A stretch of 64,000 nucleotides of DNA from Patescibacteria group bacterium (GCA_038061225.1 JBBTZT010000005.1:19646-83645), one strand, 5' to 3'; positions 3,067 to 39,603 are shown, counted from the first letter of the stretch. The notes: a model not told the origin generated them from the sequence alone. Translations and numbers: made by a program.

Positions 3067-4404
3067 CTATTTTATTTGTAAAGCTTCAATAAAATTCTTA
3101 TCAAATTTATCAAATCTCTCCGTTAGTATAGGATCTAGATAGAAAAATGGCTGGTGTGAGTAATTTGAATTAAAAATTTTTCCATAAACAGGTAGATAAC
3201 CCTTTGTCGTTAACATAATTCTAAATCCCACATTTATATCAAAGTTCTTACCGACATACCCGCTTCCGTGGAATGATGATAGTTTTGTAGATCTATTGAT
3301 AGGATATAAAGTTAAACGATCTATAATATTATGCATGTCGCATCTAATAGAATCTGGATATATATATTCTACTGGTTTAGTTAATCTTCCAGACACAATT
3401 TCAGAAATATAATTTATAGTAAAACTCCATGTATCATGGACGATCTTTTGCCTAAGTATATTAATTTTTTCACTAGAATTTTTAAAGTTGAATATATCTT
3501 CAAAAACATGGAGAGTTAAATTATCTTTATCTTTTGAAGATTTAATTTCATGTACATAAATGCAATAAATTAAAGACATATAGAGGGCAATAAATTTATT
3601 TGCTAATTCTTTATCTTTAGCTGAACTCAAAATCTTCGAAATGTTTAAGAGAGGATCTTTAAGATTGATATACTTACCAAACATCTTTGTATAATTTGCC
3701 CTTGTTTTTAAAAAGATTTTTCTTTTTTCAAATTTAATTTCTTCTGGAAGAAATTTGTCTAAAGTCTTAACATAATCTACAAGCTCGACATATCCTTCTA
3801 AATTTAAATGTTTGGAAAATAATAACAAAGTCGTTTGATATTTATTAATTATTTCATCAGGAAAATTTAAAATCTGTTTAAAACGATACCCATCCATTAA
3901 AACAATAAATTTAGCTCCAACTGGATAAATATATTTTACAGCCAAACATATTTCCTTTAATCTTGCCAAGGAAGCCAAATCTGCTAGGTCTGGTAACAAA
4001 TCTGCACTCTTTAATAAATTTGGTATCTTGCAAGGAAATAAAGAGATAGTGAGTCGAATTGGTAAATTTTCTTTTATTCTATCAGAAACTTTTTGGTACA
4101 AAATATCAAAACCACTACTTTCTCTAGTACCACCCCTATATCTTCTTGCCATAAGTACTTCTACAACCATCCGATTGAGATCAGTTTTCTTACCATTCCT
4201 AAATTTCTTTTTAACTCTCTCTGCTATTTTAGACGCGTTTTTCTCTATCAATTGATTTATTTTTTTTGAAAGTAGCAGAAATAATTCATCATTCATTGTA
4301 AAATTAGTGTTTTTTCTTGATACAAATTTACTTGTTTTAAGATTAATAGATCTTAATGACGAACAGCTGATTAAAATTTCATTTTTGCTAAAAATATTTT
4401 TCAT
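3067..4404 (-). CDS. Hypothetical protein, 445 aa (island cargo)
   Basis: The ORF is intact and overlaps the upstream gene's stop by 4 nt (ATGA). Motifs FPCKIPN ... YPVGAKFIVLMDGYRF weakly recall the Dit1/PvcA isonitrile-synthase family. This is from memory only and unverified. Confidence 0.35.
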   Translation of the reverse strand: MKNIFSKNEILISCSSLRSINLKTSKFVSRKNTNFTMNDELFLLLSKKINQLIEKNASKIAERVKKKFRNGKKTDLNRMVVEVLMARRYRGGTRESSGFDILYQKVSDRIKENLPIRLTISLFPCKIPNLLKSADLLPDLADLASLARLKEICLAVKYIYPVGAKFIVLMDGYRFKQILNFPDEIINKYQTTLLLFSKHLNLEGYVELVDYVKTLDKFLPEEIKFEKRKIFLKTRANYTKMFGKYINLKDPLLNISKILSSAKDKELANKFIALYMSLIYCIYVHEIKSSKDKDNLTLHVFEDIFNFKNSSEKINILRQKIVHDTWSFTINYISEIVSGRLTKPVEYIYPDSIRCDMHNIIDRLTLYPINRSTKLSSFHGSGYVGKNFDINVGFRIMLTTKGYLPVYGKIFNSNYSHQPFFYLDPILTERFDKFDKNFIEALQIK

Positions 4405-5630
4405 ATATTTTGTAAATCAATAATGTTTCCTGGCAACTCTTTATCTACAATTTTTTGAATTGTTTGCCAATAATCTTTTATTTCCGATAATTCCTTTTCT
4501 GTAGCTGGTGTTTTGTCACGTCCGAATACAATAGGTACGTCTTTATTACATAAAGTTTTGGATGAACAAGCGGTGGTGATGACTCTAGGGATAATATCCA
4601 ACCTAAATTCAGGAGATTCTTTTGAAAAGGAAAAGTTAAATGCTCCAGAGAAACCTTTTGATATCCAAATCTGGTTGGCTTTAGTTATTATTCCCTTTTC
4701 TCTTCCTGGAGCAGCTGCCACTAAATTATTTGCAAGATATTTAAGTAATACGACAGAATCTCTTGATATAAAGTTTTGTTTATTCAAATAGGTACTTAAT
4801 CTTTTAACACGATCTTTTCTTGCTCTTGGAATATATCTTTGAGTAGTAAAATCTAATGATTTATCGGTGAAGACTTCCTGAATTTTGTTATACTCGCATC
4901 TCATATTGGTATATAAATTTACTAATCCTGGGAATAAACTTTTAAAATTCTTGGTGTCTGAAAAATATATAGATGTAAAACCAAAGTTTTCTTCCAACCT
5001 ACTGAAACCTTGATTTGGAAATAAATTCTTTTTTTCCTTCAGAGATATTATAAAATCATGGAAGATTTTTGAAAATGGCTCGATAAGAGATAATCTATCA
5101 AACCAATTTAGTTCACTCCATGATATTGACGTTAGATTTTTATTCAACACAGAATCTTCAACTAAATAAATATGGGAGTGTAATCTTTTTAAAGTATGGT
5201 TTCCCAAAAGCGAAACATCTTCAGAATTGAAACCTAGTGTTATTTGGACGTTTTTATTCCCAAAATCTAAAAGTTTGTTCACCATAACTTGATTGACAAT
5301 AAGTAATTTCTCACCCTCAACTTCAGTAAGATCAGTGATCGAAGAAACATCTCTGTCTGGCTCGCCAATGAAAATGTTCACATCCCTCAAACCGAATGAA
5401 TAGCTTTTTGGTGTAATTAAGTAATCTAAGTGTGATCCTTCAAATTTAAGAGCAGCAAGAGGAAGAATTCTTTTTCTAAACTTCAACCAATCTACTGAGT
5501 TAGCTTCTGTATTATTCAACGGTGCCATAAAATATAAAGGTCGATGAATTTTTCCAACATTCATCGATTTTGCTTTTAACATTTGGTCAAAAATAGGGTT
5601 TTCTATCATGTTATTTAATAGTAAGAACAT
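4401..5630 (-). CDS. Hypothetical protein, 409 aa (island cargo)
   Basis: The ORF is intact with no recognisable catalytic motif. It is translationally coupled to its neighbours. Confidence 0.35.
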   Translation of the reverse strand: MFLLLNNMIENPIFDQMLKAKSMNVGKIHRPLYFMAPLNNTEANSVDWLKFRKRILPLAALKFEGSHLDYLITPKSYSFGLRDVNIFIGEPDRDVSSITDLTEVEGEKLLIVNQVMVNKLLDFGNKNVQITLGFNSEDVSLLGNHTLKRLHSHIYLVEDSVLNKNLTSISWSELNWFDRLSLIEPFSKIFHDFIISLKEKKNLFPNQGFSRLEENFGFTSIYFSDTKNFKSLFPGLVNLYTNMRCEYNKIQEVFTDKSLDFTTQRYIPRARKDRVKRLSTYLNKQNFISRDSVVLLKYLANNLVAAAPGREKGIITKANQIWISKGFSGAFNFSFSKESPEFRLDIIPRVITTACSSKTLCNKDVPIVFGRDKTPATEKELSEIKDYWQTIQKIVDKELPGNIIDLQNI

Positions 5631-35528: not shown

Positions 35529-36401
35529 ATGCAAAAAGGACCAGTAACACCAAAGGGTTTTGTAGACATGTTGCCAGAAACTGCAGCAAGGCGTAGGGTG
35601 TTTATAAATAAAATTAGTCTTGTTTTAGAAAAATATGATTTTGTTCCCCTTGAAACCCCTATTGTAGAGTTTGCAGAAACTCTACTTGGAAAATATGGTG
35701 AAGAAGAAAAATTAATATATACTTTTGAAGATAAAGGAGGAAGAAAGCTTGCTTTAAGGTATGATTTAACTGTTCCTTTAGCTCGATTTGTTGCTAATAA
35801 TTTAGGTTTATTAAAACCAACTTTTTCAAGATATCAAATTGGTCAAGTCTTTAGAGGTGAAAAACCACAAAAAGGGAGGTCGAGAGAATTAACACAATTT
35901 GACTATGATATTGTTGGAAGTAATAACCTGCAAGAAGACGCTAGGATTATAGCTGCAGCAATTGATGGATTTAGAATAATAGGTTTAACAAAATCTAAAA
36001 TGGCAGTTAACGATCGGGTAAATTTTAAAGACTTACCTGTTGAAGACATAAGACTAATTGACAAAATGCACAAGATAGGTAAGGAAAATTTGCCATCAAA
36101 CTTAATTGATTTTGTAAATTTGGCAAAGCCTACCGACAATTTAGTTAAAATATTTAAAGTTTTAAAAGAGGATTATAAATTAGTCGAAAATAAAGATTTC
36201 TTTTTTGATCCAACTCTTGCAAGAGGGCTTGATTACTACACCAGTACTGTTTTTGAAATGAAACTAAATGGGCTCCCCTCTGATTTATCAATCGGTGGTG
36301 GAGGTAGATATGACAATTTAATTGGTATGTTTGCAGGACGCCAAATTCCTGCAGTCGGATTTTCCTTTGGAATTGATCGAATTATAGAATTAACAAATTA
36401 A
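35529..36401 (+). CDS. Histidyl-tRNA synthetase-like protein, class II catalytic core only (HisZ-like, no anticodon-binding domain)
   Basis: 290 aa with HisRS motifs 1-3 (RYDLTVPLARF, RGLDYYTSTVFE, GGGRYDNL...PAVGFSFGIDRI). The ORF ends right after the catalytic domain. Confidence 0.6.
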   Translation: MQKGPVTPKGFVDMLPETAARRRVFINKISLVLEKYDFVPLETPIVEFAETLLGKYGEEEKLIYTFEDKGGRKLALRYDLTVPLARFVANNLGLLKPTFSRYQIGQVFRGEKPQKGRSRELTQFDYDIVGSNNLQEDARIIAAAIDGFRIIGLTKSKMAVNDRVNFKDLPVEDIRLIDKMHKIGKENLPSNLIDFVNLAKPTDNLVKIFKVLKEDYKLVENKDFFFDPTLARGLDYYTSTVFEMKLNGLPSDLSIGGGGRYDNLIGMFAGRQIPAVGFSFGIDRIIELTN

Positions 36402-37338: not shown

Positions 37339-37650
37339 ATGAAAGCAAACATACATCCAAAATGGTTTAAGACATCAAAAGTAAGCTGTGCCTGTGGTAA
37401 TACATTCATAGTGGGTGCCGTAATTCCAGAAATAAATGTTGAAGTTTGTTCTGTCTGTCATCCATTTTATACAGGTCAAATGAAATATCTTGATGCTGCG
37501 GGAAGAGTTGAAAGTTTTAAACAAAAATTATCACAAGCTTCAAAAAAGGTTATTTCAAAATCTGAAAAAAGAAAAATTAAACAAGAAAAAAGAATTAGAG
37601 AAGAAATGAGTAGACCAGATTCACTTGAACAACTTCGAAAGAATGTTTAA
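37339..37650 (+). CDS. rpmE: Ribosomal protein L31 with Lys-rich C-terminal extension
   Basis: MKANIHPKWF...CACGN...CSVCHPFYTGQ is the L31 zinc-ribbon. It is followed by a 33-aa extension. Confidence 0.8.
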   Translation: MKANIHPKWFKTSKVSCACGNTFIVGAVIPEINVEVCSVCHPFYTGQMKYLDAAGRVESFKQKLSQASKKVISKSEKRKIKQEKRIREEMSRPDSLEQLRKNV

Positions 37651-38341
37651 TCAAACTACATATATTGAAATTCGTGGTGCTACAGGTGGAGATGAAGCCA
37701 AACTTTGGGGGCAAGATCTTCTTCGTATGTATTCTAGGTTTGCTACAAAAAAAAATTGGAAGCAATCACAAATTGATGATTTAACTCTAAAAATAACAGG
37801 GCCAGCTGTTTTTGATGAGCTGAAAAATGAGTCGGGGGTACATAGAGTTCAAAGAGTTCCAACAACAGAAAAAAGAGGTAGGATTCACACATCAACTGCA
37901 ACAGTTGTAGTACTCCCAGAGGTAGCAGAAACTGATGTTAAAATTAACCCCAGTGACCTAGAGTGGCAATTTACAACTGCTGGTGGACATGGTGGACAAA
38001 ATGTCAACAAGGTGTCTACCGCTGTTAGACTACGACACGTACCTTCCGGCATAGTGGTGCAAGCAAGAGAAGAAAGATTTCAAGAACAAAATAGAATTAT
38101 AGCTCTTGCCTTACTTCGAACAAAACTATTTGAAAAACAGGAAGAAGAAAAATTAAAAACAATTGCAGGATATCGATCTGTTATTGGAAGTGGTAAGAGA
38201 AGCGAAAAAATACGCACTTATAACTATCCACAAGATAGAATAACTGATCACAGACTTAAAAAGTCTTGGGGAAATTTGGAAAGTATCGTTGATGGTAGTT
38301 TAGAGAAAGTTGTGGAACTTACTAAATTACTTTATATCTAA
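37625..38341 (+). CDS. prfA: Peptide chain release factor 1-like (domains 2-4 only)
   Basis: It has a GGQ motif (GGHGGQNVNKVSTAVRL) and an RF1-type PxT tripeptide (QRVPTTE). About 100 aa of N-terminal domain 1 is missing. It overlaps rpmE in the +1 frame. Confidence 0.7.
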   Translation: MNNFERMFNQTTYIEIRGATGGDEAKLWGQDLLRMYSRFATKKNWKQSQIDDLTLKITGPAVFDELKNESGVHRVQRVPTTEKRGRIHTSTATVVVLPEVAETDVKINPSDLEWQFTTAGGHGGQNVNKVSTAVRLRHVPSGIVVQAREERFQEQNRIIALALLRTKLFEKQEEEKLKTIAGYRSVIGSGKRSEKIRTYNYPQDRITDHRLKKSWGNLESIVDGSLEKVVELTKLLYI

Positions 38342-39603
38342 TTACTATTCACTTGTTTTATTGCTTCTTGAAGTTGTTCGTCTTCGGTTGTCTCATCTTT
38401 ATCAGAAACAACAACATCAGGTTCAATTCCTTTTTCATTTACCCATATTCCCTTTGGTGTTAACCATTTTGCAATTGTAATATGTAATGATGATCCTTTT
38501 TCAAGTTGTAATGGTTCTTGTATTGTCCCTTTTCCAAATGTTTTTTCCCCTACTAATTTATAGCCTTTAATTTCAGATAGTGCTCCTGCTAATATTTCAG
38601 AAGCTGATGCGCTTCCACCATTAACCAAAATTACAACTTTCATATTGCCAAATTTTCCAATTCTATTTGATGCAAAATTATTTTTTGTTTGCCCTTTCTC
38701 CTCAATTACTATAATTGAATCCTTTTTTACAAATTCGCCTGCAATATCAACAGCACCTTGTAAATATCCACCTGGGTTATTTCTTACATCGAGCACGATG
38801 TTCATAATCTGAGGTTTATGGTTTATCACCTCTGAAACTGCTTTTTGCCATTCTGAATTAGTATCAGCACCAAACTTGAGCAATTTAATATGAGCTATTG
38901 AGCCTACCTGGCCATTGGTTGGGTCAATAAAAGTGGTGATAACAGATGGTACATCTAAACTTTCTCTTGTAATTTCTACCTTTATTGGTTCATCTTTTCC
39001 ATCACGAATAAGTAAAAGTGTAACTTTAGTTCCAGCCTTGCCTCTTATTAATTTTACAGCGTCTGAAAGTGTAATTCCAAATGTCCCGATATCAACTCCC
39101 TTAACAGAATCGGCAATTCCAACTATAAAATCTCCAGCTTTTACTCCTTCTTTTTCAGCAGGAGATCCGAGTAGTGGCGCAATTACAGCTAAGTTTTTAC
39201 CCTTAAATCCAATTTGAATTCCAACTCCTTCAAATGAACCAGAAAGATCTTCTTCAACAACTTTATTTTCTTCAGGTGGAAGAAAAGCGGTGTAAGGATC
39301 ACCTAAAGAAGCAACCATTCCAGAAATTGCTCCATATATCATTTTTTGAGGACTTATTTTTGATCTATCATAGTATGAGTTTTCAAGAGTATCCCAAATT
39401 CTCCAAAATAAAGAAAAATCAACATCTCTTTTGTCCTCTGGAATTTCTCTTGATATTTTTACTTTTGGAAAAGAAACTGTTTCAAGCTTAAAACCGTTAG
39501 TTCCTAAGGTATAGCCAGAAATAAAAATTAATCCTATTACTACAGAAGATAATATTACTTTTCTAACGGCAGGATAATTCATAACGCTTACGTTGAATTT
39601 CAT
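38338..39603 (-). CDS. C-terminal processing peptidase (S41 family) with PDZ domain
   Basis: It has the S41 serine region GGSASASEILAGAL, a PDZ domain and an N-terminal TM. Confidence 0.8.
   Translation of the reverse strand: MKFNVSVMNYPAVRKVILSSVVIGLIFISGYTLGTNGFKLETVSFPKVKISREIPEDKRDVDFSLFWRIWDTLENSYYDRSKISPQKMIYGAISGMVASLGDPYTAFLPPEENKVVEEDLSGSFEGVGIQIGFKGKNLAVIAPLLGSPAEKEGVKAGDFIVGIADSVKGVDIGTFGITLSDAVKLIRGKAGTKVTLLLIRDGKDEPIKVEITRESLDVPSVITTFIDPTNGQVGSIAHIKLLKFGADTNSEWQKAVSEVINHKPQIMNIVLDVRNNPGGYLQGAVDIAGEFVKKDSIIVIEEKGQTKNNFASNRIGKFGNMKVVILVNGGSASASEILAGALSEIKGYKLVGEKTFGKGTIQEPLQLEKGSSLHITIAKWLTPKGIWVNEKGIEPDVVVSDKDETTEDEQLQEAIKQVNSN

Follow-up and report, generated by a model that had tools for sequence, protein, structure and literature searches.

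Probable minimal release factor 1 without domain 1, encoded beside rpmE in a Woesebacteria-like bacterium of the candidate phyla radiation

In a 64,000-nt stretch of DNA from a Patescibacteria group bacterium (GCA_038061225.1; JBBTZT010000005.1:19646-83645; hereafter, the window; GC content, 32%), the gene prfA appears to encode a peptide chain release factor 1 (RF1) that has lost its first domain. In almost all bacteria, the class-I release factors carry this domain 1, which contacts the L11 stalk and serves as the handle for recycling by RF3. The prfA product in the window, a protein of 232 amino acids (aa) encoded directly after rpmE, the gene for ribosomal protein bL31, consists of domains 2-4 only. 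We consider, with a probability of roughly 85%, that this open reading frame (ORF) is the housekeeping RF1 of a Woesebacteria-like bacterium (Microgenomates, within the candidate phyla radiation [CPR]/Patescibacteria), that it has been minimized naturally and acts independently of RF3, and that the TGA codon and the open frame located just upstream have no function.

Two Pfam families, PF03462 (PCRF; E=2.6e-32) and PF00472 (RF-1; E=9.7e-35), are matched by the prfA product above their gathering scores. The PCRF match begins at profile position 101 of 194, and the matches to the two NCBIfam prfA models start at positions 104 (of 347) and 113 (of 361); in other words, domain 1 is absent from the window RF1. 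The protein aligns to residues 88-318 of the RF1 of Thermotoga maritima (E=1.6e-65), and its alignment also spans residues 110-342 of Escherichia coli RF1 and 106-340 of Thermus thermophilus RF1, with 42%-45% identity to the T. maritima and T. thermophilus proteins in the structural alignment. Compared with canonical RF1, approximately 105-110 residues of domain 1, a hairpin of approximately 10 residues in domain 2, and approximately 15 C-terminal residues are missing from the alignments. (The E. coli RF1 and RF2 sequences in the CPR RF1 and short-RF2 alignments are illustrative; the coordinates on solved structures come from a separate alignment.) The NCBIfam RF1 model scores 298 bits and the RF2 model 191 bits, and the decoding residues are of the RF1 type, with PxT and not the SPF of RF2. 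According to the predicted structure, domains 2-4 share the RF1 fold: the AlphaFold model (pLDDT 80.4) superimposes on free RF1 (1RQ0 and 1ZBT) with TM values of 0.77-0.78 and an rmsd of 3.2-3.4 Å. A preliminary description of this DNA had recognized the RF1 hallmarks PTT and GGQ in an ORF that begins at domain 2, and the motif positions and profile matches confirm this. The homologues carry the N-terminal pattern M-x-x-Q-x-x-Y-[LI]-E-I-R-G, lined up with ATG 37643, which is probably the real start of prfA, rather than TTG 37625.

Genome loci were gathered by a scan with one genome per species, and we refer to the 80 related loci as L001-L080. Among the proteins, the nearest 120 clusters (90% identity), several of which are named Woesebacteria or Microgenomates, are all 230-243 aa long and 84%-100% identical to the window RF1. 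At an identity of 64% or more, there are 31 loci (L001-L031; Woesebacteria, Blackburnbacteria, and Shapirobacteria), and all of them have an RF1 that starts at domain 2, usually with a length of 229-238 aa. The dN/dS ratio of prfA, calculated with those relatives for which dS is unsaturated (0.8-1.9), is approximately 0.06. PxT is present in 120/120 family members and GGQ in 120/120, and when GG(D/E)EA, RIHTS, and DHR are also counted, each motif is retained in 119-120 of the 120. Because the truncation is conserved in this way, it is far beyond what chance would produce. The preliminary description had offered a genuinely N-truncated RF1 as one of two options, and the alignment with related CPR RF1s supports it: the absence of domain 1 is lineage-wide in Woesebacteria, Blackburnbacteria, and Shapirobacteria, the gene is syntenic and under strong purifying selection, and all the catalytic and decoding motifs are kept. 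An artifact or pseudogene, in which the 5' part of prfA was lost by assembly error, frameshift, or recent decay, has the short length in its favor and nothing else. On the contrary, the same architecture is seen in hundreds of independent assemblies and species, the dN/dS value speaks against decay, and rpmE, which abuts the prfA start, leaves no space for a 5' part. We regard this explanation as extremely improbable.

The location of the gene is equally instructive. In all 31 loci, the short RF1 lies directly downstream of rpmE, which is the slot of the full-length RF1 in other CPR, and rpmE is found upstream of prfA in 71 of the 80 related loci, among which RF1 identity falls in a continuous gradient from 93% down to 50%. 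Because rpmE precedes both the short and the full-length CPR RF1, the short gene is the orthologue of the latter and not an extra paralogue. The objection to this view is that the short protein may be an accessory paralogue, a rescue or quality-control factor like PrfH or ArfB, in a genome that carries a normal RF1 elsewhere. Natural release factor homologues without domain 1 that have special roles do exist, such as PrfH (PMC1586002), the search for release factor genes covered the window and the flanks of the loci rather than a whole clade genome, and the window protein stays below the equivalog level of RF1, with 297.8 bits (cut-off, 400) and 288.5 bits (cut-off, 423.25) against the two NCBIfam models. 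This low score arises because a third of the model is missing, and it also accounts for the name given by the National Center for Biotechnology Information (NCBI) to an identical protein from a Patescibacteria metagenome-assembled genome, “peptide chain release factor-like protein” (MEK7473003.1; cluster P0001). However, the rpmE-linked slot, the identity gradient, and the retention of the RF1-specific PxT loop and decoding residues all argue against a paralogue. The PrfH model (TIGR03072) gives 62.9 bits against a cut-off of 166.65, and the ArfB model (NF006718) gives 49.8 against a cut-off of 100, both through domain 3 only; the RtcB neighbor is absent, the upstream gene being rpmE; and neither the 64-kb window nor the flanks of the 80 loci (±3 kb) contain a second release factor gene. 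An accessory paralogue is, therefore, improbable.

Domain 1 appears, from the CPR RF1 alignment, to have been lost by staged erosion across these lineages. It is complete in the RF1s of Parcubacteria (Falkow-, Uhrbacteria, and others; 347-374 aa). The first ~55 residues are gone in the RF1s of the WWE3, Collierbacteria, Saccharimonadales-labelled, and some Amesbacteria loci (304-325 aa); only ~22 N-terminal residues are left in other Amesbacteria (254 aa); and nothing of the domain is left in Woesebacteria, Blackburnbacteria, and Shapirobacteria. As a separate observation, the groups with the ~55-residue loss (WWE3, Saccharimonadales-labelled, and Microgenomates) are groups reported to be without bL9 and helix 78 of the 23S rRNA (PMC9297842); this overlap probably reflects shared ancestry rather than a functional link.

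The loss of domain 1 is not confined to the Woesebacteria-like lineage or to RF1. In Yanofsky/Colwellbacteria (Paceibacterota), the RF1 is also without domain 1 (120/120 matches; median, 245 aa; L037:2986-3708; P0275-P0394). Since the domain-2 hairpin is still present in this RF1, domain 1 was probably lost independently within Parcubacteria. A scan of metagenomes with the pattern SPF...GGQNVNK retrieved RF2 genes whose products (232-242 aa) have domain 2 at the N-terminus (L096, L115, and L116), and the L115 type is lineage-wide in Jorgensen/Brennerbacteria, Paceibacterota, Minisyncoccia (120/120 matches; median, 232 aa). These short RF2s share exactly the two deletions of the window RF1, that is, domain 1 and the ~10-aa domain-2 hairpin, and with domain 1 the region of the RF2 frameshift site is gone too. 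The L115-type RF2 gene occurs in the context prfB-ftsE-ftsX, tightly abutted upstream by a gene for a 210-aa protein without any Pfam match, in which an HExxH motif (HEITH) is suggestive of a metalloprotease. Together, the further RF1 clade and the RF2 clade indicate that the loss of domain 1 is recurrent in CPR and hits both paralogues.

In a search with representatives at 50% identity, four more entries (P0125, P0126, P0129, and P0133) look like further genuine forms of RF1 without domain 1. One of them, P0129 (332 aa), has a long low-complexity insertion at the position of the domain-2 hairpin, and P0123 (256 aa; Amesbacteria) has a short N-terminal remnant only. Most of the short entries retrieved do not count as independent losses: some, such as P0144, P0180, and P0198, are fragments or high-GC genes with frameshifts, and others are duplication artifacts. 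The database also contains RF1 entries of 477-481 aa (P0121 and P0124) that are assembly artifacts with internal duplications, and several of P0144, P0180, P0198, P0225, P0237, and P0261 begin with domain 2 and continue at the C-terminus into a long tail of out-of-frame junk, their high-GC origin being deduced from the residue composition. No description of truncated release factors in CPR was found in the literature searched, which is not proof of novelty.

It is also conceivable that the RF1 gene was split, so that domain 1 is made elsewhere as a separate polypeptide and associates with the short RF1. We built a hidden Markov model (HMM) of domain 1 with 111 positions from 31 full-length CPR RF1s, and found no domain-1-like coding in any of the six frames of the 64-kb window or of the flanks of 34 relatives, although the positive controls gave 1e-29 to 1e-31. 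This search reached the window and the flanks of relatives rather than complete genomes, which leaves the split some room, but the intermediate lineages erode gradually and show no fission, and the 210-aa protein encoded upstream of the short RF2 is not domain 1, given its HEITH motif and the lack of a Pfam match. We consider a split gene quite improbable.

The second option of the preliminary description was a regulatory arrangement in which a UGA codon gates the translation of RF1. Its observations were accurate: the TGA at 37607-37609 and a 39-codon open stretch that overlaps the bL31 tail in another frame are present, and the TGA, which recurs in three further assemblies, cannot be put down to a sequencing error. 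The TGA was described as lying six codons upstream of the first start codon, which is correct for the TTG, but the distance to the supported ATG is 12 codons. In such a gate, translation would start at ATG 37493 within rpmE, and the UGA at 37607 would either be read through to give an N-extended RF1 or be terminated by RF2, with the level of RF2 controlling RF1. In its favor, the TGA and the 39-codon frame are found again in three more assemblies from this population, and the use of TGA as a genuine stop by this genome means that RF2 must be present. However, 28 of the 31 short-RF1 relatives have TAA or TAG, and three have TGA, as the first in-frame stop before prfA, and its distance to the ATG is 1-37 codons. 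In the closest relative (L001; 93% identical RF1), the TGA site is occupied by TGG, where bL31 reads Met-Asp, and TAA codons occur two and 21 codons upstream, both within the region that matches the “open” stretch. The same short RF1 is thus accompanied in relatives by unrelated upstream frames, and this outcome is the one that the preliminary description had named as refuting its proposal. The 39-aa peptide has no similarity to the domain-1 HMM (E=9.3), and its sole Pfam match is below threshold and unrelated; it was also rejected as a remnant of domain 1, since its 5' half is dictated by the conserved bL31 core YLDAAGRVE read out of frame. The same nucleotides encode the conserved core and the tail of bL31, and it is this frame that is under selection. 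Nor is the open stretch statistically unusual, given that the 57.6 kb of coding sequence in the window contain 50 off-frame runs of 41 or more codons without a stop (0.87 per kb). Recoding of TGA (code 4 or 25) was rejected as well: with table 11, the long ORFs total ~90% of the window length and 16 of the 59 end in TGA, so TGA is an ordinary stop in this genome and the code is unchanged. The UGA gate is, on this evidence, refuted, and the TGA and its frame appear to be out-of-frame readings of selected bL31 sequence, without function.

The junction between rpmE and prfA varies within the clade. Between the rpmE stop and the prfA ATG, the 31 short-RF1 relatives have distances of -14 to +104 nt, with overlaps in L001 (-8), L003, and L007 (-14 each) and gaps of +1 to +104 nt in the others. 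In six of these loci (L006, L008, L022, L027, L028, and L030), we observed an AT-rich spacer of 78-104 nt with short recurring words, for example “gaaaattg” or “ccaattg”. In the genome described here, rpmE and prfA are probably co-transcribed, to judge from their arrangement, and the 8-nt overlap perhaps couples their translation. A known RNA element, promoter, or terminator at the junction was sought and rejected: Rfam gives no match there, and promoter- and terminator-like sites occur at the level of shuffled sequence.

TAG is read by RF1 only, whereas TAA is read by both RF1 and RF2. Of the 31 short-RF1 loci, 22 end rpmE with TAA, nine with TAG, and none with TGA, whereas TGA closes 25% of background ORFs; in the full-length-RF1 loci of Parcubacteria, it is TAG in 21 of 27, compared with a TAG background of ~21% (neither count takes phylogeny into account). 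Directly after rpmE, these Parcubacteria loci have a terminator formed by a GC hairpin and a T-run. One might speculate that termination at the rpmE stop, always readable by RF1 in this clade, feeds into the translation of prfA as RF1 feedback, an idea compatible with the reading of a minimal housekeeping RF1. Such feedback is favored by the bias in both sets of stop codons and by the spacing, with most clade members showing an overlap or gap of -14 to +27 nt. However, the TAA in the window can also be read by RF2, highly expressed genes generally avoid TGA, the counts are uncorrected for phylogeny, several clade members have spacers of 78-104 nt, and in Parcubacteria a terminator hairpin separates the two genes, which makes the feedback unlikely.

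The tail of bL31 deserves separate mention. Pfam L31 covers residues 1-63 of the 103-aa protein and the NCBIfam model residues 1-69 (PRK00019, 89.7 bits; cut-off, 70), leaving a tail of 34-40 aa. In tblastn comparisons, the tail is conserved through residues 100-103 with 55%-88% identity in the Woesebacteria-clade loci, and the RPxSLxxLR motif at its end is shared by the clade. The preliminary description called this extension atypical, which is true in comparison with E. coli but not within CPR, where bL31 is 95-119 aa long in most of the loci examined and ~100 aa is the norm; bL31 is among the ribosomal proteins reported to be enlarged in CPR (Tsurumaki et al. 2022; PMC9297842). Since CPR with a full-length RF1 have the long tail as well, it is no substitute for domain 1. 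A replacement of domain 1 by the bL31 tail and a bL31-RF1 fusion by frameshifting were both rejected on this ground, together with the spacing of -14 to +104 nt and the in-frame stops.

How might a release factor of this form work? Domain 1 shows the lowest conservation among the release factor domains and is needed neither to recognize codons nor to release the peptide (Baranov et al. 2006, PMC1586002, summarizing Mora et al. 2003). Truncated RF1 is functional in vivo, and domain 1 is required to stimulate RF3 (PMC1586002); engineered E. coli RF1 and RF2 without domain 1 keep codon-specific release and support growth, but RF3 cannot stimulate them (Mora et al. 2003, in PMC1586002). The gene for RF3, prfC, is missing from small genomes (PMC1586002), and RF3 is probably absent from the small genomes considered here. 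The window RF1, expressed from the conserved rpmE-prfA pair, keeps the superdomain that reads stop codons, made up of domains 2 and 4 with PxT, together with domain 3, which carries GGQ. We propose that it would recognize UAA and UAG and hydrolyze peptidyl-tRNA like any RF1. Contact of domain 1 with the L11 stalk and RF3 would play no part in this, and the factor would thus leave the ribosome without RF3. The fact that RF2 has lost domain 1 in parallel in another part of CPR is in keeping with a change in the ribosome or in RF3 rather than with a peculiarity of one gene.

Several points weigh against this reading. The window protein falls under the RF1 equivalog cut-offs of NCBIfam (298 vs. 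400 bits); a second, full-length RF1 was looked for in the window and the flanks of the loci and not in a whole clade genome; the short RF2s found so far stem from Parcubacteria or from unassigned contigs and not from Woesebacteria; the coupling to rpmE is not conserved across the clade; and the RF1 activity of the 232-aa protein, namely UAA/UAG-dependent hydrolysis of peptidyl-tRNA, is a prediction from its sequence. We also put forward, as a tentative extension, that large CPR clades terminate translation with a minimal RF1 and a minimal RF2, both of which would have independently lost domain 1 and the same hairpin. The pathway might then have been remodeled, with no RF3 or L11-stalk docking, with release that is intrinsic or driven by a partner, and with the frameshift autoregulation of RF2 lost; feedback on prfA may operate through the rpmE stop.

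The coordinates of the features are collected in Table 1. At its 3' boundary, the rpmE-prfA unit meets a convergent gene for an S41 peptidase: the prfA stop (+ strand, TAA 38339-38341) overlaps the stop of the peptidase gene (- strand, TAG 38338-38340), so there is no space for a terminator between them. At Rfam gathering thresholds, no RNA families, including tRNAs, were detected across the 64-kb window. Upstream, at 35529-36401 (+ strand), a HisRS-like protein of 290 aa consists of the class-II catalytic core only (Pfam tRNA-synt_His), with the anticodon-binding domain missing. Two identities come into question, a truncated HisRS and a HisZ-like paralogue, and the protein may be a further case of minimization in translation. 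In a further 178-kb contig (L083), whose RF1 is 99% identical, single-base homopolymer deletions in A-runs break the rpmE, HisRS-like, and S41 peptidase genes, which looks like long-read error and not biology. At the other end of the window, a gene for a YcaO cyclodehydratase adjoins a DIT1/PvcA-like gene (1306-2661 and 3067-4416, both on the - strand), and this pair may represent a small peptide-modification or secondary-metabolite cluster, which would be unusual for a CPR genome.

Table 1. Features of the rpmE-prfA locus (window coordinates) and release factor 2 (RF2) genes without domain 1 (locus coordinates).
Feature	Location	Strand	Basis or remark
rpmE, ribosomal protein bL31, 103 aa	37339..37650	+	Pfam PF01197, E=7.3e-25, residues 1-63; stop TAA 37648-37650
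prfA, minimal RF1, 232 aa, domains 2-4 only	37643..38341	+	Pfam PCRF and RF-1; stop TAA 38339-38341
TTG, alternative prfA start from ORF finder, probably unused	37625..37627	+	Homologue N-termini align with ATG 37643
Overlap of prfA start and rpmE stop, 8 nt, ATGTTTAA	37643..37650	+	Read from sequence
PxT “anticodon” tripeptide PTT, residues 73-75	37859..37867	+	Read from RF1 sequence
GGQ catalytic motif, residues 117-119	37991..37999	+	Read from RF1 sequence
bL31 Lys-rich C-terminal tail, residues 64-103, ending in RPxSLxxLR	37528..37647	+	tblastn matches in clade
In-frame TGA upstream of prfA, apparently incidental	37607..37609	+	A-TGA-GT of Met-Ser codons in the bL31 frame
39-codon off-frame open stretch within rpmE, apparently incidental, not a gene	37490..37609	+	No domain-1 similarity; stops in relatives
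Convergent S41 (CtpA-like) peptidase gene, 3' boundary of rpmE-prfA unit	38338..39603	-	Pfam Peptidase_S41, PDZ_6, CtpB_N-like
RF2 gene without domain 1	L115:2430-3125	-	SPF motif
RF2 gene without domain 1	L096:758-1525	-	SPF motif
RF2 gene without domain 1	L116:12-758	-	SPF motif
RF2 gene without domain 1	L204:10001-10699		SPF motif

Engineered proteins had already shown that domain 1 is dispensable; the novelty lies in its loss in nature, which is recurrent and clade-wide. The loss from RF1 in two CPR clades and from RF2 in a third can be regarded as an evolutionary replicate of the laboratory result, in which the codon-reading and catalytic parts stay under tight selection while domain 1 is deleted repeatedly and stably. 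It defines a natural minimal release factor of ~230 aa, which is useful for structural work and engineering, and it leads to the prediction that the ribosomes of these bacteria terminate translation without RF3. It also explains why essential genes carry NCBI labels such as “release factor-like” or “PCRF domain-containing”; surveys of genome completeness or of essential genes could miss them. A tempting but false candidate for recoding is removed at the same time.

Among the known systems, the closest in content is canonical RF1 (PrfA; TIGR00019/PRK00591; 1RQ0 of T. maritima, and the E. coli and T. thermophilus proteins), which likewise has domains 2, 3, and 4 and shares with the window RF1 the PxT loop, GGQ, the GG(D/E)EA helix tip, RIHTS, and the C-terminal RTYN-PQ-R-TDHR block. 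The window RF1 differs in being without domain 1, the domain-2 hairpin, and ~15 C-terminal residues, and in its score below the equivalog cut-offs. PrfH (RFH, paired with RtcB2) also has GGQ and is without domain 1, but it has neither of the anticodon tripeptides of RF1 and RF2, and an rtcB-like gene always precedes it, whereas the window RF1 has a canonical PxT and rpmE upstream. ArfB, ICT1, and C12orf65 have the GGQ domain in common with it; unlike the window RF1, which keeps domains 2 and 4, they are without these codon-reading domains and have a basic C-terminal tail (ArfB, ~140 aa). The likeness to the +1 frameshift of prfB, with its UGA at RF2 codon 26, is superficial: in both cases, a UGA lies in frame upstream of release factor coding, but the UGA in the window is unconserved and has no homologous coding upstream, where the frame belongs to another gene. 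The RF1 of Yanofsky/Colwellbacteria and the RF2 of Jorgensen/Brennerbacteria show the same minimization as the window RF1, although they belong to other CPR clades and the RF2 is the other paralogue. Finally, the E. coli RF1 and RF2 engineered to lack domain 1 (PMC1586002) have the same architecture as the window RF1 and provide the best functional model for it; those constructs were made in the laboratory and placed in a host that contains RF3, whereas the truncation described here is natural, ancient, and fixed across a large clade.

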